NCBI GenBank assembly: GCA_951406725.2
Contig: OX597824.1
Location: 34,410,001-34,474,000, forward strand
Direction: 5' to 3'
DNA length: 64,000 nt
Source of the DNA: Octopus vulgaris
Taxonomy: Eukaryota
Shown: positions 1,798-63,608 of the stretch, piece by piece
How positions within the stretch are numbered: the stretch's first letter is position 1
How the letters are laid out: every line of letters starts with the position of its first letter
Made by a program: the position numbers and the translations under genes
The notes under the pieces: model-generated
Told to the model about the DNA's origin: nothing
Databases searched by the model: none
The model's input: only the letters and a program-made list of their open reading frames with translations

Positions 1798-2074
1798 CAA
1801 AAACAATGATATTGAATGATCAATGATGATAAAAAAATATTTAGACTTATAAACCATACGAAAAAATATTTAAGGATCCAGCAATTCTTTCCATGCAAAG
1901 TAAACATATTCTTCAACATTTAAAAATCTATTTCTTATAATATAAACCCTAATGTTTTAAGACTTGAATGTAAGGAATAAATTTGGCACCATGAACAAGT
2001 GGAAGATTTAAAGAAAGAAGTTCCAAACTGGTTGTTATTAAAGTGAAAAGTAGACATCTTTGGTGTGTAATTTT

Positions 2075-2496
2075 GGATCTTTTCGGTTTGAACGGCAGTT
2101 TTTAACATAATTTCTAGGTAACTAAAAAATTTTAAACTTCGTATACTGGTAGAATGTGTTTATAAAACATCTTTTTCTCTTGGCTTTATTGAGAAAATTC
2201 TATAGTTTGTAAGATATTTGTTGTTTTTTTCTTCAATTTCTGCAATTTTGACCAATCAATGACATCCATTGAGGTAAAAAACATTCTGTGCCGTATGAAT
2301 ATGTCCCTCATTTAAGAAACAGATTGGGTTTATTTACATTTGCAAAGAGAAAAAGATACTCTTCCCCCCACCTCTAACCCTAACCCTAACCCTAAAACAG
2401 ATTGAAATGCAATAGATTGATACTAGGGTCATAATTATGGGTGACAATTTCATATGACACCGCTAGAAAAAACTGCCATTCAAACCGAAAAGATCC
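2075..2496. mobile_element. MITE family 1 (GG termini, 8-bp TSD, Merlin-like) with internal (TAACCC)n
   Basis: 29-bp TIR GGATCTTTTCGGTTTGAACGGCAGTTTTT; flanks gtaatttt/gtaatttc; near-identical copy at 52188-52606. Confidence 0.88.
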
Positions 2497-3516
2497 GTAA
2501 TTTCAAAAGTGGAATAATGTGAGTCATAAAAAACAGCAAATAGAACAGATTCAAAAGAAAGTTATATTTGTTACAAGTTTAGAGGTAACAGATACAAAGT
2601 ACAATACAATGTTAATTTTCAGTAAAGGAATATGGCTCTCTACTGAATGTAACCTACTCGACACATATATTTAAAAGTGGATTATCCTGTATATGGGTAC
2701 AGTACTAAAGGGTTGGATGTACTGAGTTTCTGTAGGAAACTACTCATTATTCTGAGCTGAAAATTCAACATAAAAATTGCATTGTTTATAATGTCTTTAC
2801 TATGGAGCTAACAATAAATATATTAGAGAGACCTTTAAATAATCAACATTTTTTAGCGTGTTGGATGTGTAGAAAAAGATGAAGATTGTTTTACCATAAC
2901 AATTAAAATTTATTAGAAAGGATGGTGTGATCACAACTTTTACATGTTGTAAGAAATCAAATGTCCTCATGTCTTGGGTCTCTGAATGAGCAGCTTAGAC
3001 ACTAGAGAAGATTGTGAAAGTAACAGAAATGTGTGTGCAGTAGAAAATATATCCAGTTCCTGGATGGCACTTACTGTAATAAATTTGTAGCAGGCATCAT
3101 TATAGCAACGATAAGAAATCAGTTTAGGCAGATATCATAAGATTGACACTAAACGCACATGGTTCGTGGAACTAGGCACAAGTGAGATAGTGTTCCTTGT
3201 GTGTACCAAATTGGCAAAAAAGAGGGAGAAAGCGCCAAACGTTGGAATATATAGGTATCGGCTGTCACCTCACCTGGTGGCCTATATCATTGAAGGGATG
3301 TAATTCAGTTACCTTCACTCTGCTACAATTTCAATTATCTTCCAAACAAGATCTGCCAATTAATTAGCTTGTCTATCTATTATGGAAGGTCAACTAATTA
3401 TCATTTCTATTTTTAAAATTATCCTTTAATAAATAAACAAAGCAGATTTTACACATGCATGTAACAAAATTCAAGATATAAAAATTCTAGATATAAAAAT
3501 AAAAGAATATATGTAC

Positions 3517-12250: not shown

Positions 12251-12900
12251 CTAGAATTAAGATAACAAATACCATCAACTAAATCCATTGTTCTTAACGA
12301 TATGTCTATCTTTCTGGATAGTTATAAAAACAAGAACCCCCAAACAAAAATCAGTTAGTAACCTGGTGACAACTTAGTTAATTAGTTCGTGACAACTCAA
12401 TCAGTTAATTAATGAATAACAGCTTGAGTCAGGGACAGCTACCATCAATTAGGGAGTAGAACACTAGAATCATGATCACAAGTAAGGCAGCTACTAAAGA
12501 CAATGGTCAAATGGAGAAATGAAATTTACTGTCAGCAGCTATGAGACCCAACTTCCCACACTCACACACTTTCACTAACTCACTTTGTCTTCTCTGCACA
12601 TTACCATATCTCTATGGTTTACTACTACAATAAGAACACACAGGCCGAAATTAACTTTTTTACTTAACACACTCTAGGATTTTATCACCTGCCTTTCTGC
12701 GCACCTTTGCTTTCAGATTTGTTTCCTATGTGGGTGTGAAGTAGAAAAATATCCATTTTTCTCAAAGTTACGAGGGAAAAACAGCGGATCTCGTGAATTT
12801 TTTGAAGTCCTCTCCCCACCTTCTCAGAAAAGATTTCACTCACAAATTTCGTAATCCACACTGTTTGAAAGGTATTTATATAAAATTTCACTAAAAAAAA

Positions 12901-13349
12901 GGCAAGACTTCCTGTTGTACCCACCAAAAAACACCCCTTTTTTTTTTTTTTTTTTTTTTTACAGAAACCCCCGTTTTCAGCTACAGAGAATACAAATCTG
13001 CAAAAAATTGGCTTTCTCAACTTACCCCCCCACCCCCAATCTCTTCATTTTAAACTTTTTTTCACAAATTTTTTTTCAAAATATGCAAAAAAATACGGAG
13101 ATTATGATATGCTTCTGAAAAAAATATTTTTAATTTTTGTAAAATTTTTTATCAGAAATTTTTTTTTTGTCAAAATATGCAGAAAAAAACAGATTATGAT
13201 TCTGAAACAAATTTCCAAAAATTTTACTACTTAGGGTTAGGATTTTAAGGTTAGAGGGTTAGGGTTAGGGTTTTGGGTTCGGGTTATGGAAAGAAGTGCA
13301 CCAAAAAACAATAAGTTGTGAGAAAATGGGGTGGCAGGAGGAAGTCTTT
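12901..13349. mobile_element. MITE family 2 (G[G/A]CAAGACTTCC TIR) with degenerate TTAGGG tract
   Basis: ggcaagacttcc...ggaagtcttt; homologous to 17191-17727 and 62454-62949; ttagggttagg tract at about 13231-13285. Confidence 0.7.
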
Positions 13350-14216
13350 AAAAAAATCCATTTTTCTAAAAGTTATGAGGGAAAACATCGGATCTCGTGA
13401 ATTTACTGAAGGCCTCTCTCCACCTCCCATTGCTTTCCGGGCATTTTTGTTTTCATATTCGTTTCCTATACTTTTTTTGACACCCGTTGCACTATTTTTT
13501 TTTTTTTCAATTTCATTTCCGAGTAATAATGTTAACATTAACCAAAAATTATATTAGTAAATGTTTTTCTCTTACACAAACATGCAAAACTCGATACTGG
13601 AAAGTGTTGGAATTTTTTTTTATTGGATAATTGTATTAATTCCATTGTAAAAACCAAGAATGAAAAAAAAAATCGAAAAGCAGTGGAAAGTTTTTGAATT
13701 AACTGGGTAGTGGGGAAATATTTAAAAATAATTTTTTTTTATTGGATAATCATATTAATTCCATTATGCAGATGACAAAATCGAAAAAATTTTGTGAAAA
13801 TTCTTAAAATTATGGAAGTTATGAGGGGTTTGAGTATGTGTTTCGATCAAAACCCCGCCAAAAAATCAGAACTGTAATTTTGCATGTGCACACAGCAAGA
13901 AATAACATAATTCGTACTGAAGTTTTACCTAGAGTGTGTGTGTGTGTGTGTGTGCGCGCAAAAGAAGTTATTTTTACATACCTTTCTTAATTCCAAAATA
14001 GGAAAAACTTGAACAATACTTTCAAAATATGTACACATAAATATTGTATTAAAATAAGTCATCTTTACAGACCACGTTTTCAATTATCAATATAATTGAT
14101 AGCATAGTATGTATAAAATGAAATTAAATCCAGGTTTAGTCACAGGTAAAGTTTTAACATTTTTGTGACAACTTAGTGTCTCCATACATTCAAATGAAAC
14201 AGTTAAAGAAAGAGAT

Positions 14217-14628
14217 CTTTATCTTTTATCTTTTACTTGTTTCAGTCATTTGACTGCGGCCATGCTGGAGCACCGCCTTTAGTCGAGCAAATCGACCCCG
14301 GGACTTATTCTTTGTAAGCCCAGTACTTATTCTATCGGTCTCTTTTGCCGAACCGCTAAGTGACGGGGACGTAAACACACCAGCATCGGTTGTCAAGCAA
14401 TGCTAGGGGGACAAACACACAAACACACACACATACACACACACATATATATATATACATATATACGACAGGCTTCTTTCAGTTTCCGTCTACCAAATCC
14501 ACTCACAAGGCATTGGTCGGCCCGGGGCTATAGCAGAAGACACTTGCCCAAGATGCCACACAGTGGGACTGAACCCGGAGCCATGTGGTTGGTTAGCAAG
14601 CTACTTACCACACAGCCACTCCTGCGCC
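14217..14628 (-). mobile_element. Full-length tRNA-derived SINE family A (CORE-like)
   Basis: Minus strand begins GGCGCAGGAGTGGCTGTGTGGT (A box), GGTTCAGTCCC (B box), CTTGGGCAAGT core-like motif, tail AAACAAGTAAAAGATAAAAG. Confidence 0.9.
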
Positions 14629-14967
14629 ATTCTCTCTTAGAAAGAGAAATTAATTTTGGTATTGATAGAAATGCAGAAAAAACCAGAAGCAGTCAAAATG
14701 GGAGAACGTGTTTGTGGGGTGGGGGGACAAATCCTAATCTCCGATATTGAAAACAGGAATTTGAAGAAATTTTTAGGGGGAAAAAAAGTGGGGGTGGGGT
14801 GCAAATGTCAAAAACTAATTTCTCTTCCAAAGAGAGAGTGACATTATCTCTTTCTTTCACATTTTTATTAGAATGTATGGAGACACTATGTTGTCACAAA
14901 ATGTTAAAACTTCACTAACTTGATCGATTTGTGACGAATCCTGGATTTAATTTCATTTTATACACAC

Positions 14968-15352
14968 TTATTTCTTTATTGCCCACAAGGGGCTAAACAT
15001 AGAGGGGGACAAACAAAGACAGACAAAGGGATTAAGTGAATTACATCGACCCCAGTACCTAACTGGTAATTAATTTATCGACCCTGAAAGGATGAAAGGC
15101 AAAGCCGACCTCTTCGGAATTTGAACTCAGAACGCAACGACAGACGAAATACTTATTTCTTTACTACCCACAAGGGGCTAAATACCGAGGGGACAAACAA
15201 GGACAGACAACGGATTAAGTCGATTACATCGATTTCAGCGCATAACTGGTACTTAAATTATCGACCCCGAAAGGATGAAATTTGAACTCAGAACACAAAG
15301 ACAGACGAAATAGCGCTAGGCATTTCGCCCAGCGTGCTAACGTTTCTGCCAT
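14968..15352 (-). mobile_element. Family B SINE head-to-tail dimer
   Basis: Two units joined at cagacgaaatac|ttatttctttactacc, the same junction as in the 35-36 kb array. Confidence 0.85.
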
Positions 15353-15995
15353 GTCGCAACATGGTCTGTAAAGATAACTTATTTTAATACCATATTTATG
15401 TGTGCTTTTTCATAAATGTTTCTCTTGCCTTGTCACCCCTACAAATACCCACACAGAGTTACTTCTTGGGGGGGGGGGGAGCTTAACAATCATGGCTGAA
15501 GTACAATTTTGGAAGTATTGTTCAAGTTTTTCTTATTTTGAAGTTAAGAAAGGTAACTAAAAATAACTTTTTTTGCACACACACACACACACACACACAC
15601 TAGGTAAAAACTTCAGTACGAATTATGAGAATACCTTGAATTATACTACTTCTTGCTGAAAGTAGTATAATGAAACTTTTTTTTTTATTTTGTGATTCGT
15701 GTTTGTGATGAGCGTATTTAAAAACCTGATCTTCGATATAAACTTGAAAGGAAGTTTTTTTTCAGAAATCGTGTCGTTTAGCTGTTGTTTCTAGCATGTA
15801 ACATTGCGGAGGGAACATTTGCGCTACCCAAATTTTTTTCCTTCCACCTCTCCACTTTTACAAAGATAAAAACTCCGAATGTTTCACTTTTAGCGTAGAA
15901 TTCTACGCACGCGTGAAACATTCGGAGAGGTGATGGATGGAGGAAGGGTCATTGAGTGTTTCTTTTTAAGAAAGATTAAAAGTTTTTATAAAAAA

Positions 15996-16081
15996 GGCGA
16001 AGTTAAAGAATAAGCACACCTGGTATTTAAGGGTTTAGGGTTACGCCGAAAACGGGTGGTGTGGTATTCTTTACCTCCACT
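15996..16081. mobile_element. MITE family 3, minimal copy (about 86 bp) with a TTAGGG core
   Basis: ggcgaagttaaagaataagcacacc...ggtgtggtattctttacctccac; homologous to the host MITE at 57462-58898. Confidence 0.7.
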
Positions 16082-16733
16082 AAAAAAAAAAAAACATTTC
16101 CAGATTCGTAATCTCTGTATTTTTTCTAGATGGATAAAAAAAATAATTTGAAAAAAAAAAGTTCAAAATTACTAAATTGGAGTGGGGAGCTGAGAAATTG
16201 AAATTTTGAAAACGTGATTTGGGGGCAAAATCGTATTTTCCTATATTGAAAACATACAAATCCGAAGAAATTTTGAGAGAAAAAAAAGTCGGTAATGGGT
16301 GGTGACAAGCGCTTTATTTTCGCCATAAACTCATTCACACTGAAACACACGCACACTACTCGGAAAGCTGCTTAAAATGATCATTGTAACTGAATATGAA
16401 ACCTGTTGACTGCTTACGCCATTACTTCAAACCTTTCTTATTTTAACTTTCTAGTAATTAACAACCTAAGAAAGAAAACGGCTTGCGTATTTTCCTTGTT
16501 CGTAAAAGACTTCATAAACAGTAATTATGAGAAGAGACGATTAGATTCGATTTTGAAATGATATTGTTCCACAATAACTGTGCACAAAGTGGACATCACA
16601 AACAATGACTTTCTATTAAACATGTTTGTTATAACACCTAATAATTTAACTAGTTGATCAATTTAATTATTAAAGTAGTTTAATTATAAAGAATAGGATT
16701 GTAATAATGGATTAAAAGAGTTAAAGTACTTAC

Positions 16734-17190: not shown

Positions 17191-17727
17191 GACAAGACTT
17201 CCAATTGTACCCCCAAAAAAACACACCCCTTTTTTTTTTTTTTTTTTTTACACAAAACCCTGTTTTCGGCTACGGGGAATATGAATCTGCTAAAAAAAAA
17301 TCAGCAAAAATCGGCATTTTGAAATTACCCCTACCCCCTTCTCAAATCCTTCGTTTTTAACTTTTTTCACAATTTTTTTTTTTTTTTCCAAAATATGCGG
17401 AAAAATAAGGATATTATGATTCTGAAAAAAATTTCAAAAAATTTTTCTGCTGAGGTTTAGGGTTAGGGTTAGGGTTGGTGTTTTGGTAAATGAAAATTTA
17501 CTGGTGTTTTAAGGTTGGGGTTTTAGGGTTACGGTTACGGAAAAAACTGAAAACTGAAAAATTTGGAGGCGGGGTGGAGTAAGGGGGTGCAAGAAATTTC
17601 CAAATTCAGATTTTTGGCAATTTTCCGGAATCTCCGTATCCGAAATGGTGGGTTTGGGGCAAAAAAATTTTTAAAAAACAATAATTTGCAAGAAAATAGG
17701 GGGGGGGGGGCGGGAGGAATTCTTTCC
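17191..17727. mobile_element. MITE family 2 with TTAGGG tract
   Basis: gacaagacttcc...ggaattctttcc; flanks gaaaacaa/caaaacaa (7/8); telomeric-like tract at about 17452-17537. Confidence 0.75.
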
Positions 17728-18149: not shown

Positions 18150-21100
18150 CTATGAGGATTGCTACTAGTCACTAGATCAACCTTTGACCTCTCATTCTCC
18201 ACCAGCTTCGGTATGCTCGAGAGAAGCTACCTCACTCCACCAAGGGTTCCTAGCAGAATTAGTCCTGCCAACCCCACCACTCCTACAACTTTTGACCTTC
18301 CCCCCACACCACCTGACATCCGTTCTAGTCCACCATTGCAACCAATACTGCTTGCCCTGCCTCCTCTCTTAATTCACTTCCTCGACTGAGTTCTTATGCT
18401 GGCCCTCTACTGTCGGCCAATGCTAGCTCACCACCTGACTGTGCTCTCTGTGCTTGCGCTAGCCAATACCTATAAACAATTGTCATCTATGCCACCAAAA
18501 TTACCACAGAAGTTATGTCTGCATCACCAAGGCTCAAGCCGAAAGGCTTCCATACAGGACCTGCAGTCAGTGCCACTTCAACTCCAATGCTCTCCGTGGA
18601 GATGCCCCACACTGCAGCAACCAGTTCGCTACTGAGAACTTTGCTGCAATCTTCCAGGGTTTATCCAAATCGAAGCTCATTAATCAGATCCTTAATGAAG
18701 CCCAGAATAGCTTTGCTCATGCGCTCTTCAGCTTGTTGAAAAACGTATGTTTATTCAACAGTACGTCCGACTGACAGAAACTGTTTCTGTTCCCTTTCAT
18801 CTCTCTCCACATGCACGATCTGAAATCAGGCTGCCTTACATCCTCTCTCAAGCAACAATTCCAGTTATTTGAGTCTGCCCCGACCACTTCTCACCTCAAT
18901 TTAACATCAAGCACGGTTCCTACCAACAGGCAACATCAGTGTGCAGTCAATGCCAAATTCAGCAAATTTCACATAAAAGGGGCTATCCGTCTCCTCTCTT
19001 CTCTATCCTCCCTCTGTGTAACTCTGAGTCTCTTAAATGTCTGAAAGAGCAGCACCCAACAGCATCCCCAGATAATCAGCTAAACTGGCCTGATCCCCCA
19101 GAATACTTGAGACTGGTCTTCACTTCTGATAACATTAGAAAGGCGATTTCATCCTATTCTGCTGGTTCAGGTGCAGGAATTGACAGCCTTCAGCTTCAAC
19201 ACCTCAAGGATATTTCCTTATTGGCCGGTGATGCTGGACTCGAGCTCTTGGACAATTTGACTCAGTTTGTGATCCAGTTCTTTTCAGTGAACATTCTCCC
19301 CTATATCCGCCCACTGTTCTTCAGTGCAAAATTATTCAGGATCACTAAACCATATGGATACCTGCACCTCATTTTAGTTGACTGCACCCTTCACTGTCTC
19401 ACCGCAAAGGTGTGTTTACAATCTGTCTCTAACCTATTGGAGGAGGAATTTTCCTCCACCCAGCTAGGAGTGGGCACCAAATTTGGATGTGAGGCTGCTG
19501 CCCATGCTACCAGAGCCTATGCCAACTTGCCCTCCTTGTCTCTCAAGGTCATTCTCAAACTTAACCTCAACTATGCATTCAACTCTGTCAGCCATGATGC
19601 TGTCTTCAGCTCAGCAAGAGAAAGGTTCCCACAACTCTACCGCTCTGCATGGCAGGCTTATCAAGAGCCCTCCTACCTCTCTTTTGGTGACCAAATCATC
19701 ACCTCTGCCTTAGGAGTCTGACAGGGTGACCCACTTGGGGCTACTCTGTTTGCACTGGGCATTGATGACATCACTAAGATGGGGGTCAAGCTAGACCGGT
19801 ATCTCAATGACGCTTGTTTGGTAGGACCTCCAGACAGGGTTCTCGCCATTGCAGACATGATGGTTGGGGAGCTTGGTCATCAGGGTCTCCAAGTAAACAG
19901 CTTCAAATGCGAGCTCTGGATCTTCAGCCACCTAGCTTCTCAACATCAACAAACAATAGACCTATTTGCAGCATCCTTCCCTTCCATTGTAGTCCTTCCC
20001 TCATCGGCTTGGTGCTCCTTTGGAGCCCCAATTACTGACCTTGCCTTTGAGTCCATCTTCCAGTCAAAGGTGGCTGCCCTTGAGCAGTTGCTGAAGAATA
20101 TTGAAGCAATCGAACCCCATCAAGGTTTCTTCATACTTAGAAATTACCTTTCGATCTCTAAGCTTCTATATTTGCTCAGAGTCAGTTCCTCTCACCGATT
20201 CCTATATTGTCTCTGACTCTTTGACAATCAAATCTTCAAGAGACTCCAATGCCTGGTCAATGTCAGACTCTCTCCAACATCAGACGATCAGTCTGCATTG
20301 TCCAAGCAAGTTGCGGGTCTTGGTCTTTGTAATTGTTTGTCCCTCTCTCTTCCCTGCTTCCTTTCCTCCATTCACGCCTGCTCCACCCTGGTGAGCAACA
20401 TCCTCTCCTCTCCAACATGGACCAGTTCCAACAGGGAGTTGGATGAAGCTCTCCAACACTGGAGTGAATTGGGCTTGTCTGCTCCTGAGAAGGTGGAGGG
20501 CTGTCTGAGTCAGAGAGCTTGGGACAACATAATTCCGAAGGCCACTTTCAACTCCTTCTTCATCCAGTCGGACCAGTTTTCAAGGTGCCGCTTACTGTCT
20601 GCTAGTGCCAAATACTCAGGTGACTGGATTGATGCCATCCTTGTTGCTAATGTTGGTGGCCTACCCAGCTTGAACGAACTTCGTGTCTCCATTGCCCTCA
20701 GAGTGGGAGCTGACATATGCATGGGTTTGAGCTGTTGTTGTGGCAGGCTCCTCGACTCCACGAGCCTCCAGGGTTTTTCTTGCCACCTGAATGCTGGTCA
20801 CATCATGTGTAATACAGAGTTAAACCTTATGCTCAAGAGGAGCTTGGCCCAGGCAAACATCCCCTCCATCTTGGAACCATCTGGGTTGTCCAGATGTGGT
20901 GGGAAAAGACCTAACAGCTTCACCATGTGCCCCTAGTCAAGAGGCAGATGCCTTGTCTGGGACATCACAGTTAGCGACTCCTTTGCTTCTTCTCACATCC
21001 TGGATGCTGCAGCCAAGGCGAGATTCACAGCTTCAGTGACCAAGCGGAACAAAATTCTAAAGTACTGCAATCTGTCGGCCAACTACATTTTCCATCCTGT

Positions 21101-21300
21101 AGCATTCAAGATGTTTGGTGGGGTCAGACCACTGACTGTAAGATTCCTGTCTTCACTGGCAGCTCACCTAGCTGAGGTAACTGGTGAAACTCATGAGGGC
21201 ACTTGGTTGTTCTAGTGCATCAGTCTCGCCATCACCCATGGCAACACTGCAAGTGTGCTGGTGTACCTCAATAGTCATTAACAAAGTTTCCCAGTTTCCC
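18150..21300 (+). mobile_element. CRE-clade-like non-LTR retrotransposon (RT plus restriction-like endonuclease), pseudogenised
   Basis: SGAGIDSL..QHLKD, QLGVGTKFGCEAAAHATR, AFNSVSH, GV*QGDPLG, YL(N)D, C-terminal CCCG zinc-finger remnant and LEPSGLSR.GGKRP..WD nuclease motif; many stops and frameshifts. Confidence 0.85.
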
Positions 21301-21835: not shown

Positions 21836-24800
21836 TTTGGGTTAAGGGGCAAATTGCCTCTTTGCAAACTTAATCTATGGATGACAACAAACTGCTTTTC
21901 AGCTATGTATTCATTCTTTTAAATGTTCCATGATTTTGGTCATTAAGTATCACTTTTCTATTCTCTTCTAAGGCAGAAGATTCGATCATTGTAGACCCAA
22001 AGTAAAACCTAACAGTTTTTCAAAATCTGATGACAACAAACGCTTCATTTCAAACGCTAAAACCTGTAAATTAAGGAATTTAATTTTAATTTTAAAAAAG
22101 TCACTTACCACATCTCTGGCAAACTGGGCAATGCTACACATCTTTACATACAAAACAACTCCCTCCACTAACTTTATTTCCTTTTAACTTTCTTAATAGT
22201 GCATATTTTTTGTAATAATCTTCAGATAAGTTTTAAGAGATATACATTGAATTCCTTGCACATGATTATTCCATTTTTTGTCTTGCTTCATAAAATTAGT
22301 CATTTTAAGTTTAACAAAAAGAGAAAAGGTTTTCTCTGCCATTAATTGACCTAGGCTACCTGTCTTAATATTGAGAGAAAGAAAACTATTTGTGTGTTCC
22401 CAATATAAAAAAATTCAAACATTTTTGATAGATAGTCAGCAGATGCATGAAACACTCCTAAATGAAAATAGTGACATACAGCTAAAATAAGTAAAAATAT
22501 TTCAACTTAAGGCTTTTAATATACATCATTGCTAAACCCAAACATGGCTCTAATGTTTTATAATGTCTACAAGTTCGTTAATAATTTTTTTTTCCTAATT
22601 AATTAAAAATTTTAAGGTTCCCCAATAACGTTAACATTACAATTAGTGAATTCCACCAAACTAAGATCTGTAACATGATGCTTTTATGTTTTTCTTGAAA
22701 ATATATTATTGCCATCCTGAGTATTTTTACAAGATGGATTTAGAAACGTTCACACAAAGGCTGCAGAAAAGAAGTGGTGCTTAGAAACAGAGCATTTTCC
22801 GAAAATTTCTGATTAGGATTGAATTAAATACTATATTTCTGGTTTAAAGGATGCAATCATTTAGTTATTTCTGATGAATAAGTGATAAATGGCAGCAGTT
22901 GAGAGGGAGTATCATTTTTGTTAAACCAGCTCACACTTATGAAACCTAATACAACTTGATAAACCAGGGTAAGAATGGACAAAAGGGGTCTTTAGGAGAA
23001 AACTCGTGTTGGATATGTGTTATGAGTGATGTGGATGTTTGAAATGCTGGAATTGTTTCAGATATTGGAATTCTATCACAGGCCAAGAAAAGAAGTGAAG
23101 AAAGTTTGTTGTTTTATTCCAGGTTGTGATAGCTGTATTAATGTTACCATTAATGATAGCTGTATTAACGTTACCATCCCACTGCCACTCTACATTTGTC
23201 GCTTACACAATGCTGTTCCCTGATATCAGCCACACTCACTATGCCGCCTTATTTCTCTCACACTAACACTATTTGCACCCTTCTCATTTTATCAAATAAT
23301 AGCCCAACCCCACTAGGGAGCCCATTATAGATTTTTATTGAAATCCAATTTGCATATAATTGAACTGGATGTTAGTTTAACATGTTTGCAAAGTTTCATC
23401 AAGATTGGTTCACTGGTATAGGCAGCAAGATGGTAACAGACAGATTGAGAGATTGAAATTGCCATTTATGTATAAGATTTCAATTGAAGATCAAGATCAA
23501 AGTTCAATGAATTTGAAGTTTCTACAAGTTTAGTAATCTGGGTAGTCGAAACATCTGCTGTATCAGAGCAGCTTCTAAGACACCAATATCAGCTGATTCA
23601 CTGACAGAAAGGTTCTGAAGCTTATAGACTTTGCATTGCATGGCCCAGTGTTTTGGATGAACACTGCATTGAAGCCATTTGTTCGTATTACTTCTGATAA
23701 AGATGATAAAAATCTCCCTATTATAAGCAAAATTGGAGTAATATATAATGTTCAAATCAGAAGGTTTTTCCTACTTAGAAAATGATCTGGAACTTTCCTT
23801 GGACTCAAGCATTAATAATACTTTACTAGCTTCAAACAGGGATTTTCACTTTAGGATGTTTCTTACAGATATTATATGATACATCTGGACAAGTCTGAGC
23901 AAGATAACATCATTCAATCCGCAATTCTTTTTCTGTTTTTTATAATTTACCAATTCCATCTCCTCTTCCATTATTATATTCAGCCAATGACAGTATTTTC
24001 CTTTGTGAATACTTTTGAGTATAGCATAAAAATAGCATAAAAACAGCCTAATCACTAAAAACCATAATAAAATATCCATACCTTATTAAATTCAATAGCA
24101 AGTATTTATAGAAAATGTATAATAATTTAAGTATTATGAGCTAAAAATTGTTATTTAACTTATTTAGCTTATTATAATCAGGACTGAAACCCGGTATTAG
24201 TTAAAAGAATAATTGTTGTTAAAAGGACATACTAATATATACTAATATTAAATTAAGAAGTATAATATAGATTTTAAAAGTTATTTGTGTTAATCCATAA
24301 ATGATATAATAGTTTCTTAGGGGTACTTAATTAGAAGGGCTGTTTGCATAAAGCCAATATAAATACCAAAATTAAGAGGACAGAACACTTTAAGAAAGGG
24401 ATAAAAAAAACTTAGTTACTAAAACTATCTTAAACAATATGTCATTATTGTATAAAGTTAAAATTTAGGGTTATCAGGAAGATTTATCATTGAGGTGAAA
24501 GAACAAATTTACTATAAATTAATTAAATTATAATTTAGACAATTTAATTTTAAGTTGTGAAGATACCTATATTGTTTTTTATAAGCTAAGTATGGATTTA
24601 TTAGGGGCACAAAAATTTAGGTTTGTCTAAAGGCAATTATGAAGTATTAAAATGATTGGGTAGGGTAGAAACACCATAAAAAAGGATATAAATCATGATG
24701 AAGTATATATACCAACTTAGTAACTTTAATAGAGAAGATTTATACAAAATATTTAATAATTCAAGTATTTAAAACTAAAAATTGTTTATTTACTTAATTA

Positions 24801-25144
24801 GCTTGTGTCTATAATCACTGATGCCAAGTATTAACTAAAGGAGAATTAATGCTATAGGGCATGCTACCTATGCACTGCTTTTAAATTAAGAGGTACATTA
24901 TAGGTTTTAAAACCCAAGATCAATAAAGTGCTACTTTCTAAAATATTTGAAGGTACGGGTGACACTATGTACGCATGATACCCAAAGGTCTAATCGATTA
25001 TTAATCAGGTTGCCATTATCCTTATGCTTAAAAATTTCATATGTTTCCATAGAGCAAAGCTCACACCTATATCTGCTATTTCTATAAGGCTGAGCTTTTT
25101 TTATTATTTCCCACTAGAGGCTAACCTCAATTACGCTTTCTAAA

Positions 25145-27149: not shown

Positions 27150-27206
<57 letters not shown>

Positions 27207-27236
27207 GCGAGAATGAAGCAACAAGAATGGATAGGT

Positions 27237-27327
27237 TTTTAGTACAATCGTTTCATACAAGGACAGGTTTTATTAAAAGTTGCAAAAATTACAGCATATA
27301 AACGTGTCCCGTACTCATCAGCTAAAA
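27237..27327 (-). ncRNA. Type I hammerhead ribozyme motif (mirror copy)
   Basis: Reverse complement of 28299-28389. Confidence 0.78.
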
Positions 27328-28298
27328 TACATGTGAGTTCTCTAGACATCCTAGTGGTTGAGGCTATACTCATGAAGTAATGTAGATAATTAAGTAACAT
27401 AAACAGATTTCAAAAGTTCATTAAAGTTCTTTAAAGATGATGTACAGTCTTATCACAGAATTTTTAAAAAGTCTTAATAGCATCACAGAGAAGGTGACCT
27501 AATTCATAGTGCACATATGAATTTCCAGAGATATGATGAGGGATTACATACTCACAGAAGACAAATTTATCCATTGTTAATTACAACGAGGTGGGTTTCA
27601 ATTCCTGCTTATTAGCATTACAGAGAGGGTTAATTAATCCTTTGTATAGATGCACAATTTCCAATGGTGTAGGTGTAAATTTCAAGGAATTTCATATTCA
27701 CAGGCGATAAATTTATCAATGGTTGAACACAATGAGGTAGGTATCAATTCTTGCTATATGATTAGGTATTTGCCACATTAATCACATTACTGCTATTTAC
27801 AAGAGGTTATAGCTACAGCCTCTTGTAAATAGCAGTAATGTGATTAATGTGGCAAATACCTAATCATATAGCAAGAATTGATACCTACCTCATTGTGTTC
27901 AACCATTGATAAATTTATCGCCTGTGAATATGAAATTCCTTGGAAATTTACACCTACACCATTGGAAATTGTGCATCTATACAAAGGATTAATTAACCCT
28001 CTCTGTAATGCTAATAAGCAGGAATTGAAACCCACCTCGTTGTCATTAACAATGGATAAATTTGTCTTCTGTGAGTATGTAATCCCTCATCATATCTCTG
28101 GAAATTCATATGTGCACTATGAATTAGGTCACCTTCTCTGTGATGCTATTAAGACTTTTTTAAAATTCTGTGATAAGACTGTACATCATCTTTAAAGAAC
28201 TTTAATAAACTTTTGAAATCTGTTTATGTTACTTAATTATCTACATTACTTCATGAGTATAGCCTCAACCACTAGGATGTCTAGAGAACTCACATGTA

Positions 28299-28389
28299 TT
28301 TTAGCTGATGAGTACGGGACACGTTTATATGCTGTAATTTTTGCAACTTTTAATAAAACCTGTCCTTGTATGAAACGATTGTACTAAAA
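28299..28389 (+). ncRNA. Type I hammerhead ribozyme motif
   Basis: Stem I TTTTAG/CTAAAA; CTGATGA core; stem II GTACGGGACA/TGTCCTTGTAT; GAAA; minimal stem III C-GATT-G; GUA cleavage triplet at 28381-28383. Confidence 0.8.
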
Positions 28390-28810
28390 ACCTATCCATT
28401 CTTGTTGCTTCATTCTCGCTTATAATCACCCCACATTACTGTATTGTTAAATCAGTATAGTTTTTTTTGGTGCATCTAAGTTAGGTACCATATTCAAGTA
28501 AATTCATTTAAATTAACTTGAATCTTTATTGCTTTTTGTATATATATATATATATATATTTAAATAATGAGGGAGATAAATTAATATTAATTTTAATATC
28601 AATTTAAAACCAGTAGTCCAGCATACAAAAAATCTGAGAAGTCAGAGAAAATTCTAATATATATATATATAACTTTCATTTCTTATTTCACAATGTATAT
28701 ATATGGTTGTATATATATATATATAGACACACACACACATATATACATATATATATATGTATATATTTATATCTTGTGTATATATATACATATATATATA
28801 TATATATGTA

Positions 28811-33118: not shown

Positions 33119-33541
33119 TTTTACTTGTTCCAGTCATTAGACTGTGGCCATGCAGGGTAAGGGTTTGGGTTAGGGTTGAAGAATTGTCTTGAAGAATTTT
33201 TAGTCAAACAAATTGACCTCACTATTTATTTTTTATTAAGCGTGGTACTTATTCTATTGGTCTCATTTGCCAAACCACTAGGTCACAGGGACATAAACAC
33301 ACCAACACCAGTTGTCAAGCAGTAGTGAGGGACAAAGACAGACACACACAGAACCTTGTGTTCAGGAAGCAAGCTTCTTACAACATATCCATAAATATAT
33401 ATATATATCTGCTTGTATTTAAAGAATGTTAAACACTTTCGGTATGCAAATTAAGGACTCCTCCATAGAGTAACTGCTGCACTTGTTGAGTATATAAACA
33501 GTTTGGCTGCTTGTTTCTCTAGAGATTCTCAGAATGATGTA

Positions 33542-35151: not shown

Positions 35152-36489
35152 CCTATTTCTTTACTACCCCCAAGGCGCTAAACACAGAGAGGACAAACAA
35201 GGACAGACAAACGGATTAAGTCGATTACATCGACTCCTGTGCGTAACTGGTACTTATTTAATCGACTCCGAAAGGATGAAAGGCAAAGTCGACCTCGGCG
35301 GAATTTGAACTCAGAATGTAGCGTCAGACGAAATACCTATTTCTTTACTACCCACAAGGGGCTAAACACAGAGAGGACAAACAAGGACAGACAAACGGAT
35401 TAAGTCGATTACATCGACTCCAGTGCGTAACTGGTACTTATTTAATCGACCCCGAAAGGATGAACAGCAAAGTCGACCGTTGCGGAATTTGAACTCAGAA
35501 CGTAATGGCAGACGAAATACCTATTTCTTTACTACCCACAAGGGGCTAAACACAGAGAGGACAAACAAGGACAGAGAAACGGATTAAGTCGATTATATCG
35601 ACCCCAGTGCGTAACTGGTACTTATTTAATCGACCCCGAAAGGATGAAAGGCAAAGTCGACCTTGGTAGAATTTGAACTCAGAACGTAGAGGCAGACGAA
35701 ATACCTATTTCTTTACTACCTACAAGGGGCTAAACACAGAGAGGACAAACAAGGACAGACAAACGGATTAAGTCGATTACATCGACTCCAGTGCGTAACT
35801 GGTACTTATTTAATCGACTCCGAAAGGATGAAAGGCAAAGTCGACCTTGGCGGAATTTGAACTCAGAACGTAGCGTCAGACGAAATACCTATTTCTTTAC
35901 TACCTACAAGGGGCTAAACACAGAGGGGACAAACAAGGACAGACAAACGGATTAAGTCGATTACATCGACTCCAGTGCGTAACTGGTACTTATTTAATTG
36001 ACTCCGAAAGGATGAACAGCAAAGTCGACCGTTGCGGAATTTGAACTCAGAACGTAGCATCAGACGAAATACCTATTTCTTTACTACCCACAAGGGGCTA
36101 AACATAGAGAGGACAAACAAGGACAGACAAACGGATTAAGTCGATTACATCGACCCCAGTGCGTAACTGGTACTTATTTAATCGACCCCGAAAGGATGAA
36201 AGGCAAAGTCGACCTCGGTAGAATTTGAACTCAGAACGTAATGGCAGACGAAATACCTATTTCTTTACTACCTACAAGGGGCTAAACACAGAGAGGACAA
36301 ACAAGGACAGAGAAACGGATTAAGTCGATTACATCGACCCCAGTGCTTAACTGGTACTTAATTTTTTGACCCCGAAAGGATGAACAGCAAAGTCGACCTC
36401 GGCGGAATTTGAACTCAGAACGTAACGGCAGACAAAATACGGCTATGCATTTCGCCCGGCGTGCTAATGTTTCTGCCAGCTTGCCGCCT
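35152..36489 (-). repeat. Tandem array of seven 184-bp family B SINE units with a single tRNA head
   Basis: Unit starts at 35152, 35336, 35520, 35704, 35888, 36072, 36256; head (GGCGGCAAGCTGGCAGAAAC on the minus strand) only at 36440-36489. Confidence 0.95.
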
Positions 36490-38736: not shown

Positions 38737-39130
38737 ATATATATATTATTTAGAGATAGTAGTTCCCTTACTCACCATATAAAAAAATTTCAATTTAATA
38801 CTTACTACTCATTTCTCAACTAAACGTGTTTCTTAAGGTTCCTTAAGCATGCAGTGTTTTACAGGAACCTTTCTTAAAATGTAACCCCAATCATCAGGCC
38901 TGATGATTTTAAGAAGGGTTCCTGTAAAACACTGCATGCTTAAGGAACCGTAAAATGAACCTTAAGAAACACGTGTAGCTGAGAAATGAGTAGTAAGTAT
39001 TAAATTAAATTAAAATTCTTTTATATGGTGAGTAAGGGGACTACTATCTCTAAATAACATATATATTTCCTCATTGAGAATAATTTGAACCCCTGTGATG
39101 CCGGAATTTTTATTCCCTAATAAATAAAAT
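38737..39130. mobile_element. Palindromic hammerhead-bearing element (arms about 38737-39066) plus 3' extension, in (TA)n
   Basis: Axis atcatcagg|cctgatgat at 38898/38899; arms are reverse complements with different small deletions. Confidence 0.8.
38896..38982 (+). ncRNA. Type I hammerhead ribozyme motif (degenerate mirror on the minus strand at about 38816-38900)
   Basis: CTGATGA at 38900-38906; long stem II closing with AACCTTAA; GAAA-C-ACGT-G-TA; stem I truncated by the palindrome axis. Confidence 0.65.
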
Positions 39131-44851: not shown

Positions 44852-45787
44852 TTAAGAATTATCTGACCATCGTCTGTAAATTGAATGCTGAAAGAAAATA
44901 TTCACCAAAAACATTTGAGTTACTCTTCCAATTAATATATTATCAGGCAACCAATTTTTTATCCATTCTTGCTGAGCAATTAAGCCATTTCCGATAAAAA
45001 GATAAAATTGTCTAATCATAAGTTGCGTAACAACAAAAACTGTGCCCAATTTACAAACAAGAGTTGGTTGTAAACCTGAGCAACTTAAAATGGACAGACT
45101 ACTTTCTTCTAATAAATCATCATCTTCGTTGTCTTCGTTTTCAAAAAACATTGAAACAGTTTTCTGATAATTGAAGCAATTGACAGAAAAGAGCCGTAGG
45201 AAAATAGTGCCAAGAAAAATAGGACTTAAAAATCTGCCAATCAAATTTAGAAAGTTGGATAGTTTCTCAGAGTTTAGTTGCCAAACACTGCTCACAAATT
45301 CTATCAAAGTGTGTTTAGAATCAAAACAGGATAAAATAGGTAATTCTATATTTTCATTTAAGTTGTTCTCTGTTTTCATGAGTAAAAGTATAAGCATGGT
45401 CAACATGAAACTAAAAGCAGTTTCCCACATCTGTCCAGTTCCTAATGACCACATGAGAACATGGTTGAAGACTGTTAGAAACAATATCACATAAAGAAGC
45501 CAGGTGTTGCTGTTAAAAGTTATTAACACAATATAACAGGATAAACCATAGTTTAGAATAGAAAATATAGCAAATATAATTTGATATATGTACAGGTTAT
45601 CCTCATCATCCTCTTCAGCCAAATCATTTATGTAATTGGAAAGTTTTGTTGCTAGGAGAAGAATAAAGAGAACTTCTTGGAATAACATGATAGGTTCAAA
45701 TAACTGCAGCACAAAGCCATAGACATATACCACTGAATAAGGGATGAGTTTCACAGGGAGAGCCCACAGCAGAATAAATAATCCAAC
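44852..45787 (-). CDS. Exon 2 (311 codons plus stop) of a multi-pass membrane protein, SERINC/ICE2-like
   Basis: 936-nt open frame in AT-rich DNA; acceptor ttttcttatttag|GTT in frame with exon 1; several hydrophobic segments; IMLFQEVLFILL...EED..YQII...LNYGLS resembles the SERINC segment FILIQL.LL.DF...EE..WY..L...LNY.LS (family assignment is inference). Confidence 0.85.
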   Translation of the reverse strand, partial: VGLFILLWALPVKLIPYSVVYVYGFVLQLFEPIMLFQEVLFILLLATKLSNYINDLAEEDDEDNLYIYQIIFAIFSILNYGLSCYIVLITFNSNTWLLYVILFLTVFNHVLMWSLGTGQMWETAFSFMLTMLILLLMKTENNLNENIELPILSCFDSKHTLIEFVSSVWQLNSEKLSNFLNLIGRFLSPIFLGTIFLRLFSVNCFNYQKTVSMFFENEDNEDDDLLEESSLSILSCSGLQPTLVCKLGTVFVVTQLMIRQFYLFIGNGLIAQQEWIKNWLPDNILIGRVTQMFLVNIFFQHSIYRRWSDNS

Positions 45788-52187: not shown

Positions 52188-52606
52188 GGATCTTTTCGGT
52201 TTGAACGGCAGTTTTTAACATAATTTCTAAGTAACTAAAAAATTCTAAACTTCGTTTACTGGTAGAATGTGTTTATAAAACATCTTTTTCTTTTGGCTTT
52301 ATTGAGAAAATTCTATGGTTTGTAAGATATTTGTTGTTTTTTTCTCTTCAATTTCTGCAATTTCAACCAATCAGTGACGTCTATTGAGGTAAAAAAAAAC
52401 ATTCCGTGCCGTATGAATATGTCCCTCGTTTAAGAAACAGATTGGGTTTATTTACATTTGTGAAGAAAAAAATACTCTTCCCCCCACCCCTAACCCTAAC
52501 CCTAAAACAGATTTAAATGCAATAGATCGATACTAGGGTCAGAATTATGGGTGACAATTTCATATGACACCGCTAGAAAAAACTGCCGTTCAAACCGAAA
52601 AGATCC
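52188..52606. mobile_element. MITE family 1 with (TAACCC)n
   Basis: Perfect 29-bp TIR; flanks ctattttt/caattttt; copy of 2075-2496. Confidence 0.88.
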
Positions 52607-57461: not shown

Positions 57462-58898
57462 GGCGAAAGTAAAGAATACGAGGGACGTTCGATAAGTAAT
57501 GCCTCTGACCCACTTGTAGTTGTTTGATCTAGCTGAAATTTTGCATGTGCAATCAATTATATCTCTATAGAGTAAGTGGCAAATTACAGCACTGAATTAA
57601 TTGTGGTTTCTGATTTACAGGTGTTTGAACCGAGTCAAGTGTGAAATGGAGCCTGTTGAGTGTCGAGCAGTGATCCGGTTTTTGTATTTGAAAGGACGCA
57701 CACCACGGGAGACTTTTGATGAAATGAAAGTAACTTATGGTGATGATGCCCCATCATATGACCTTGTAAAACGCTGGTATCGTGAATTCAAACATGGTCA
57801 GAACTCTGTGGAAACAGCTCCCAGATCTGGTCGCCTCCTTCTGCCATTGATGAGGCATCTGTCCATCAAGTTGAGGCTGCCATTTTGGAAGATCGACGCA
57901 TAACTATTCGCCAAATAGCCCTTGAGGTCAAGATTAGTACCGGGTCTTTGGAAACTATCATTCATGACCATTTGCATATGCAAAAGGTATCTGCCAGATG
58001 GATTCCCAGGTTGCTCACGCCTTTCCAGAAGCAAGAACGCGTCGAGTGCTCGAGGGTGAATTTGGAGATGTGCCAAGAAGATGAGTCAAAATTTTTTAAA
58101 AGACTGATTACACAGGATGAAACCTGGGTCCATCACGATGATCCAGAGACCAAAGCCCAGTCAATGCAGTGGAAGCACCGTGACTCACCCCCTCCAAAGA
58201 AGGCAAGGGTGCAGCCCTCCGCTGGCAAGGTCATGCTCAGTCTTCTGGGACCAGGACGGAGTAGTGATGACAGATTTCCTGGCAAAGGGTACCACAATTG
58301 CAGGAGCCTATTATGCTTCACTTTTGAGGAAATTAAGAGAAGTTATCAAAATCAAGAGGCAGGGCAAGATCAGCAAAGGTATCCTCCTCCTGCAGGACAA
58401 CGCTCCGGTCCACAACTTGCTTGTCGCCAGATCAGAAGCACAGGCGTATGGGTATGAACTCCTCCCCATCCCCCCTACTTTCCTGACCTTGCACCCTCTG
58501 ATTTTCACCTCTTCCCAATCATGAAGTTGTTTTTGAAAGGAAAGCATTTCCCAGATGATGCAGCCTTGATTTCTGAAGTCACGTTGAGGTTGGAGGACCA
58601 AGCTGGGTTCTTCTACAAAAACGGTCTCCAGAGCTGCATCAAACGATGGGAGAAATGCGTAACTCTAAGTGGTTCCTATGTAGAAAAAGACTAATAACTG
58701 TGCCAAGTTTCGTTGCTCTACTACTATGGGAAGTGGGTCAGGGGCATTACTTATTGAACGCCCCTCGTATGTACACTCAGTGTTTCGGGCTAGGGTTAGT
58801 GTTAGGATTAGGAATTAGGGCTAGGGTTTAGGGTTTGGATTAGGGTTAGAGTTTTGTTACGCCGAAAACTGGTGGTGTACGTATTCTTTACCTCCGCC
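57462..58898. mobile_element. MITE family 3 (about 146 bp, almost entirely TIRs plus a TTAGGG tract) carrying a nested mariner
   Basis: Perfect 8-bp TSD ACTTACTG (57454-57461 and 58899-58906); TIR GGCG[A/G]A[A/G]GTAAAGAATA[T/C]GTACAC; degenerate (TTAGGG)n at about 58787-58850. Confidence 0.88.
57479..58767 (+). mobile_element. Full-length mariner (DD34D) with frameshifted transposase (57646-58694)
   Basis: 1289 bp, TA TSD, TIR CGAGGG[A/G]CGTTC[G/A]ATAAGTAATGCC; WIPRLL, DETW, QDNAP.H, PDLAPSDF motifs spread over several frames. Confidence 0.95.
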
Positions 58899-62453: not shown

Positions 62454-62949
62454 GACAAGACTTCCTTTCGTACTCCCCCACCCGATTTATTTTTTATTTT
62501 AATTTTTTTTAATAGAAATCCCCGTTTTCGGGTACGGAGATTACGAATCTGAAAAAAAAAAAATTGGCAAAAATCGGCATTTCAACCCCCACCTCTCTCT
62601 CTCTCTCTCACAGAGAGAAAGAGAGAGAGAGAGAAATTTTTTCATTTTTTTTACTTTTTCAGAAATATTTTTTTTTTGCAAAATGTGGAAATGGAAAAAT
62701 ACGGAGATTATGATTCTGAAAAAATATCTCCCAAAATGTTTGTAAAATTTCAACTTAGAAAAAAGAAAAAAAAACCTCCCCCTCCCCTCGCAATCTACCC
62801 TTTTCGCCATTGCACATGTGTTGACTTTTACGCTAAAAGTGAAACTTTGGAAGTGAAATTTTGAAATGCCGATATTTGCTCAATTTCTGAGGTTTCTGTA
62901 AAAAAATTTAAAAAATAAGGTGGTGGGGTTTACAAAAGGAAGTCTTTCC
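62454..62949. mobile_element. MITE family 2 relative (no telomeric tract)
   Basis: gacaagacttcctt...aaggaagtctttcc; tctttaa on both flanks. Confidence 0.72.
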
Positions 62950-63338: not shown

Positions 63339-63608
63339 GGTGGAAAAGTGATTTCCTACCATGTCTTATAATGATAATGACGAGAAAGTCATAAAAATTA
63401 AGAATTTCTATTTAAAAAACTTCATTTCTATATTACGTATATTCATGTCCCAAGGTTCGACAAATTTCATAGTTAGGCAATTTAGGAAAATTGGGACATG
63501 AATATACATAATACAGAAATGAAGTTTTTTTTACATAGAAATTCTTAACTTTTATGACTTTCTCATCATTATCATTTATAAGTCATGGTAGAAAATCAAT
63601 TTCCCACC
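63339..63608. repeat. Foldback MITE-like inverted repeat (about 115-bp arms, about 40-bp spacer)
   Basis: ggtggaaaagtgatttcctaccatg...tgtcccaa / ttgggaca...catggtagaaaatcaattttcccacc. Confidence 0.82.

Follow-up and report, generated by a model that had tools for sequence, protein, structure and literature searches.

TTAGGG telomeric tracts in a 64-kb window of the Octopus vulgaris genome are associated with two lineages of miniature transposons with Merlin-like ends

Introduction

Are the TTAGGG tracts in a 64,000-nt stretch of the Octopus vulgaris genome (contig OX597824.1, positions 34,410,001 to 34,474,000; hereafter the window) scars of separate chromosome breaks, as short interstitial telomeric sequences are usually taken to be, or were they carried there by transposons? 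An earlier note on this DNA had placed nearly all of them in three unrelated MITE families with GG ends and 8-bp TSDs, and had proposed recurrent capture or functional retention of telomeric DNA in one transposon superfamily. Host telomere repeats are found in the ciliate DNA transposons TBE1 and Tel-1, at the tips of the TIRs, whereas the octopus repeats are internal. Non-autonomous DNA transposons of fish and insects have comparable tracts, and repeat curators may thus know the pattern. A literature search, with subscription papers, Repbase Reports and Dfam outside its range, found no description of telomeric tracts in Merlin-type MITEs and nothing relevant on RcS5, a possible nematode parallel. 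The accessible text of three further papers has nothing on telomeric tracts in such elements (PMC10013865, PMC11458897, PMC5718144), and the string 'telomer' occurs zero times in the main text, as available, of a survey of Merlin transposons (PMC8101967).

Results and Discussion

Delimitation of the elements

Eight copies were delimited in the window, with the properties of MITEs: they are 86-537 bp long, non-coding and bounded by TIRs and TSDs, with two to three copies per family in 64 kb. Family 1 agrees with its earlier description. Its two copies, F1a (2075-2496, 422 bp) and F1b (52188-52606, 419 bp), are 95% identical, and each has GG..CC ends, a 29-bp TIR, an 8-bp TSD matching at 7/8 positions and an internal (CCCTAA)3; the chance of a match of at least 7/8 between nearby 8-mers is 0.0018. 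Family 2, by comparison, could not be kept as a GG-ended family with an 8-bp TSD. Its three copies (~79% identical, all on the plus strand) have the end pairs GG/missing, GA/CC and GA/CC, the left end being GA in two of three, and 7-bp and 8-bp readings of the TSD are about equally good. F2a (12901-13349) has lost its terminal CC and has poly-A flanks in which the TSD is not resolvable; the TSD of F2b (17191-17727) matches at 7/8 (7/7 at a one-base offset) and that of F2c (62454-62949) at 7/7 (8/8 at a one-base offset). Both F2b and F2c have long imperfect arms. F2a is flanked by a 77-bp direct repeat (12745-12821 and 13350-13425) that belongs to another repeat unit (region 12690-13470), and a deletion there may account for the absent CC.

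For family 3, GG ends and an 8-bp TSD were found in one of the two copies, both miniatures on the plus strand. F3b (57462-58898) has GG..CC ends, an imperfect TIR of ~24 bp and a perfect 8-bp TSD (8/8); it measures ~146 bp without the mariner element (57479-58767, plus strand; HTH_48 and Transposase_1 domains) that interrupts its left TIR at a TA. F3a (15996-16081, 86 bp) has an eroded right end and a weak TSD (7/8) in poly-A, and its predicted fold is no better than that of shuffled sequences (z -1.41). It sits in the central A-run of F4 (15805-16324, minus strand), an older bridging copy, overlooked in the earlier note, that has a family-3-type end at 16324, a family-2 left arm, no TSD left and a far end near 15805 that was set by eye. 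A reading of 15996-16324 as a single element was rejected: its TSD would match at only 5/8, and the host sequence runs on to ~15805.

A scan for TIR/TSD pairs that was blind to the tracts returned five pairs: four were the copies F1a, F1b and F3b (8-bp TSD) and F2c (7-bp TSD), and the fifth was weak and unrelated. F2a and F2b escaped the scan. Control scans of the reversed and complemented window, run at the 8-bp setting, gave no pairs, and a stricter TIR scan of the window recovered family 1 only. The three ORFs tested inside F3a, F4 and F2c had no Pfam match, and the Rfam search gave no match. Neither the family-1 TIR pattern nor the family-3 pattern was matched in GTDB genomes; as outside relatives, plasmids yielded only 46-bp chance matches and phages none.

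Distribution of TTAGGG tracts

Alignment of the window to (TTAGGG)n gave nine segments at a score of at least 9. One segment of 9 nt (at 24465) was dropped and two in F2b were merged, leaving seven tract loci. Six of the seven lie inside the copies, which make up 4.7% of the window, and in none of 200,000 random placements did five or more loci fall inside copies, a count in which the copies are treated as independent although they are not. The fair count is therefore that by lineage (see below): a tract was present in 2/2 lineages vs 0/8 other DNA-transposon-like stretches of the window (Fisher p 0.022), the latter being a hand-picked set with rough limits, 3/8 Pfam-backed, one partly homologous to F4 and one that we presume to be a Chapaev. 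The copies also contain 17 of the 30 exact hexamers, eight of nine occurrences of GGGTTAGGG (0.21 expected), six of seven of TTTAGGGTT and three of the four canonical G4 patterns of the window, two of these three on a tract. Within this window, then, TTAGGG tracts do go together with GG-ended elements.

The tracts themselves are short, and several are degenerate. F1a has three exact units and one variant (2370-2395, minus strand), and F1b has three exact units, one unit fewer (52488-52505, minus strand). The remaining tracts are on the plus strand: a degenerate one in F2a (13231-13286) with a longest exact run of two units; two in F2b (17453-17537), the first with three exact units and the second degenerate; a single exact TTAGGG in F3a (at 16035); and a degenerate array in F3b (58787-58853; 10.8 copies, 74% matches) whose longest exact run is one unit. 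F2c has no TTAGGG, and F4 is without a tract apart from that of the nested F3a. The statement that six of seven copies hold arrays was accordingly given up, as two or more exact tandem units occur in only four of the eight copies. Nor do the copies hold every tract of the window. A counter-example at 33154-33177 (plus strand) consists of four variant units in a single copy of another, unrelated repeat, which is of high copy number and which we take to be SINE-like. This stray tract is missing from all six other copies of the repeat that were compared (6/6). It is followed by a 10-bp direct repeat (33154-33197 in all), and looks like a break-repair insertion.

Since six of the seven tract loci of the 64-kb window came by transposition, reading such sequences in cephalopods as relics of breaks or fusions would mislead. 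Transposed tracts would also mislead telomere finding in assemblies.

Relationships among the elements

Next, we compared the copies with the tracts masked. F4 shows homology to each of the three family-2 copies (z 7.1, 4.9 and 4.3; 0/200 shuffles each), is found at E 7e-9 by a family-2 profile built without it, and has an exact 17-mer in common with F2c (0.01 expected). At 16324 it ends in a sequence that agrees with the F3b TIR at 12/13 bases, and this 13-mer end has four matches in the window, all at F3 or F4 ends (1.03 expected). In addition, a motif directly 3' of the tract position occurs five times in the window, once each in F2b (17536-17549), F2c (62829-62841, plus strand), F3a, F3b (58858-58871) and F4; the expectation of 0.04 is flattering, because the pattern was written after the five sites had been seen. 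When the homologous ends are aligned, all four tracts of this clade have the same orientation and sit at the same place in its variable centre. Tests of the tract flanks between F2 and F3 were weak (p 0.002 in one of 56 comparisons; p 0.009 and 0.052). The clade has six members, two of them tract-free: F4, without a tract of its own, and F2c, in which ends and TSD are intact.

Family 1 stands apart. Thirteen of its 14 masked comparisons with the other copies were not significant, and its tract flanks match no other tract. An apparent F1a-F2c homology (z 3.0, 1/200 shuffles) was rejected as a gappy low-complexity alignment that was not repeated with F1b. The 7-bp sequence TTTTCGG has 8/13 of its occurrences inside copies, in all three families, and may be a shared transposase site.

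These comparisons show two lineages among the octopus copies, family 1 on the one hand and the clade of families 2, 3 and F4 on the other. The supposed lack of relationship was thus borne out for family 1 and not for families 2 and 3: three independent families are ruled out by the F4 bridge and the common motif. With families 2 and 3 joined in one clade, three captures shrink to at most two origins, with some outside support for recurrence from a hemichordate Merlin (below). A common ancestral interior, the mark of a single capture, was found in families 2 and 3; family 1 does not have it.

A small element at 14628-14841 has one arm homologous to F4 (z 7.1) and differing ends of the CA..TG type; no TSD was seen, and it has no tract. 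This suggests arm exchange between MITE families.

Superfamily assignment and comparison with known Merlins

The Merlin signature consists of terminal GG, an 8- or 9-bp TSD and TIRs of 24-462 bp, with frequent internal tandem repeats, and Merlins, which are related to IS1016/IS1595, have been proposed to spread tandem repeats (PMC8101967, in the parts available). GG on both TIRs was found in F1a, F1b and F3b, and not in family 2. The same three copies have 8-bp TSDs (7/8, 7/8 and 8/8), while family 2 fits 7 or 8 bp; the TIRs of family 1 (29 bp) and F3b (~24 bp) and the long arms of F2b and F2c are within the length range. The octopus elements resemble Merlins in the GG ends and 8-bp TSDs of these three copies, in TIRs of ~24-29 bp or long imperfect arms, and in internal tandem repeats. 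They differ in having no linked transposase, and in family 2 the ends and TSD are ambiguous. Judged by their ends, they would behave like Merlin MITEs.

An 8-bp TSD also agrees with MULEs, which have TSDs of 8-11 bp (9 bp in most groups tabulated) and TIRs of 14-500 bp (PMC6446971, as far as available), and with Zisupton, which makes an 8-bp TSD and whose termini are not given in the text available (PMC12730594). As the MULE range includes 8 bp, TSD length does not discriminate; as the ends fit Merlin with no linked transposase, MULE and Zisupton stay candidates. Six short motifs of the Merlin transposase had no match in the six frames of the window. One match, in an unrelated repeat, was obtained with two MULE motifs, and none with two Zisupton motifs; Pfam coverage of the window comprised 12 + 20 chosen ORFs plus the motif scan. 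It is possible, although we would put it below an even chance, that the elements are not one superfamily and that some are MULE or Zisupton derivatives, a reading compatible with any of the origins discussed below. The GA left ends in two of three family-2 copies, the 7-bp TSD that fits as well as 8 bp, and the lack of Merlin transposase motifs in the window would suit such a mixture. GG ends with an 8-bp TSD, on the other hand, are the stated Merlin signature, Octopus proteins are among the Merlin-like sequences of the S1 Appendix, and the Merlin of the hemichordate Ptychodera flava starts with GGCAC or GGCAA, to be compared with GGCAA in F2a and GGCGA in F3 (PMC8101967, main text and supplement in part).

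We also examined the accessible part of the S2 Appendix of the Merlin survey (PMC8101967) for telomeric repeats. (TTAGGG)2 occurs at least 36 times and its complement at least eight times within the first ~400 bases of each record. On the plus strand, five places among the matches listed are P. flava records with identical flanks. Many Ptychodera records share a GGCA left end and have differing flanks, and in record LD358978.1 (TTAGGG)2 lies ~330 nt inside this end. Given the variable flanks around a common end and an internal tract, an autonomous Merlin family of another phylum has the motif; the tract is not remarked on in the survey, as far as its text was available. The likeness to the octopus copies, by end and tract alone, consists of the GGCA left end and of a T-run followed by (TTAGGG)2. 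The Ptychodera Merlin differs from them in its autonomous length, its phylum and the place of the tract, which lies in the left arm and adjoins a palindrome, possibly a nested insertion. Among the Repbase Merlins listed in the sheet 1 table, a period-6 repeat occurs only in Merlin-1_Aplcal of Aplysia (39.5 copies of a 6-bp unit that is not given), and runs of two to three units would escape such a scan (PMC8101967, tables in part). In the Symbiodinium Merlin Sy.m_F1 the 6-bp repeat is of the GGTTTT type, neither TTAGGG nor TTTAGGG (PMC8101967, in part). Symbiodinium TTTAGGG matches in the supplement were not counted, those listed being in unrelated flanks.

Origin of the tracts

Cut-and-paste movement of TIR elements in trans by a transposase is established. 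The best explanation of the octopus tracts, to which we give about an even chance, is that a tract entered each lineage once through the patching of a break and then spread as cargo. The elements would be non-autonomous MITEs with Merlin-type ends, mobilised in trans, as their TSDs suggest, by transposases whose genes lie at other places in the octopus genome. In each lineage a single event would have brought in a short stretch of telomere repeat: the internally deleted element would have arisen from the repair of a double-strand break that was patched by telomerase or with a piece of telomere. Transposition would then multiply the tract, and slippage and point mutation alter it; the one-unit difference between the F1a and F1b tracts is in line with slippage. 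On the branch of F2c and F4 the tract would have been lost or never present. The elements would in this way be a source of short interstitial telomeric sequences.

That some relatives lack the repeat argues for cargo rather than a required part, and the stray tract at 33154, outside these elements, indicates that such insertions happen in this genome. Mammalian short interstitial telomeric sequences form in a single step when a break is repaired, and decay afterwards (PMC2246262, in the parts available). The octopus tracts are like them in being short internal TTAGGG runs that decay with age; the mammalian loci are separate insertions with means of 46-81 nt, whereas the octopus tracts of 14-67 nt were multiplied by a transposon. 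Break-repair sequence should consist of the host telomere unit, and TTAGGG is the telomere motif determined in the octopus Amphioctopus (PMC13218726, in part). One-step insertion into an empty allele is seen at the stray tract, with its six empty copies. F2c and F4 have different centres, and no tract-free ancestral allele showing a one-step gain was seen for the elements in the window. By extrapolation from mammals to a mollusc, the break-repair mechanism is most likely the one that would apply here. Further observations run against cargo. Every cut-and-paste element leaves breaks, yet none of the eight other stretches has a tract, and the same motif in the autonomous Ptychodera Merlin is not predicted by chance cargo.

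An alternative is that Merlin-type arms have long contained the tract as a working part, inherited or regained across the superfamily, which would act as a telomere-protein binding site or as a G-quadruplex aiding transcription, end protection or escape from silencing. Its presence in both octopus lineages vs 0/8 other elements, the concentration of TTTAGGGTT and of canonical G4 patterns in the copies, the GG-ended Ptychodera Merlin with its (TTAGGG)2 and perhaps the 6-bp repeat of Merlin-1_Aplcal are what a retained function would produce. However, F2c and F4 are tract-free and the F3 tracts have decayed, which weakens the functional retention proposed in the earlier note, although the Ptychodera tract still speaks for it. 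Furthermore, the period-6 repeat of Aplysia is alone among the listed Repbase Merlins, that of Symbiodinium is not telomeric, and the Ptychodera case is one family whose tract may belong to a nested insertion (PMC8101967, as far as available). We consider a functional tract unlikely. The same doubt applies to its widest form, which we hold to be equally unlikely: that Merlin-type transposons across animal phyla repeatedly keep a short stretch of the host telomere repeat in their arms, for the recruitment of telomere-binding proteins or as a G-quadruplex, and that many of the short interstitial telomeric sequences of invertebrate genomes stem chiefly from them. On this view the motif should follow the host telomere unit phylum by phylum. 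If the link to Merlin held across phyla, it would point to a hitherto unrecognised connection of a DNA transposon with the telomere proteins of its host.

It is also improbable, in our estimate, that slippage in G/T-rich, homopolymer-rich centres built the tracts as ordinary microsatellites whose likeness to the telomere repeat is convergent. The arms are indeed rich in G and T runs, the F2 and F3 tracts mix TTAGGG with the variants TTTGGG, TTCGGG and TTAAGG, and Merlins often hold tandem repeats, including a GGTTTT hexamer (PMC8101967, in part). But among the 10 circular permutation classes that the letters of TTAGGG can form, its own is the only one that yields tracts in the copies, the other classes giving 0-3 matches or matches on CA and ATC microsatellites. 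Moreover, family 1 has exact units within otherwise unrelated sequence, and the same hexamer recurs in both octopus lineages, in the repeat with the stray tract and in a hemichordate. Capture followed by spread as cargo thus remains our preferred reading.

Additional features of the window

The window is repeat-rich, with remains of LINE, LTR-type, hAT, mariner and Tc1-like elements. Broken frames at 18873-21215, presumably of a non-LTR retrotransposon, had no Pfam match in the three ORFs tested. Two more palindromic MITE-like elements, at 38737-39066 and 63339-63608, are without telomeric tracts. A near-perfect 1.2-kb palindrome (27202-28424; 98.9%, 491-bp arms) with internal 71-bp repeats lies in a TA microsatellite; three ORFs tested in it had no Pfam match, and it is either a foldback element or an assembly artefact. 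The AT-rich stretch at 23900-25140 contains an internal 230-bp duplication and has what we take by eye to be a resemblance to mitochondrial small-subunit rRNA, for which Rfam gave no support. On the minus strand, 44855-45787 encodes a 311-aa stop-free part of a 377-aa O. vulgaris protein (100% identity) that has no Pfam family and only three homologues at E 1e-10. Finally, seven tandem 184-bp units (35152-36440, 93% matches) with related dispersed copies at 14966-15351 and 1579-1791 are a satellite growing out of a dispersed repeat.
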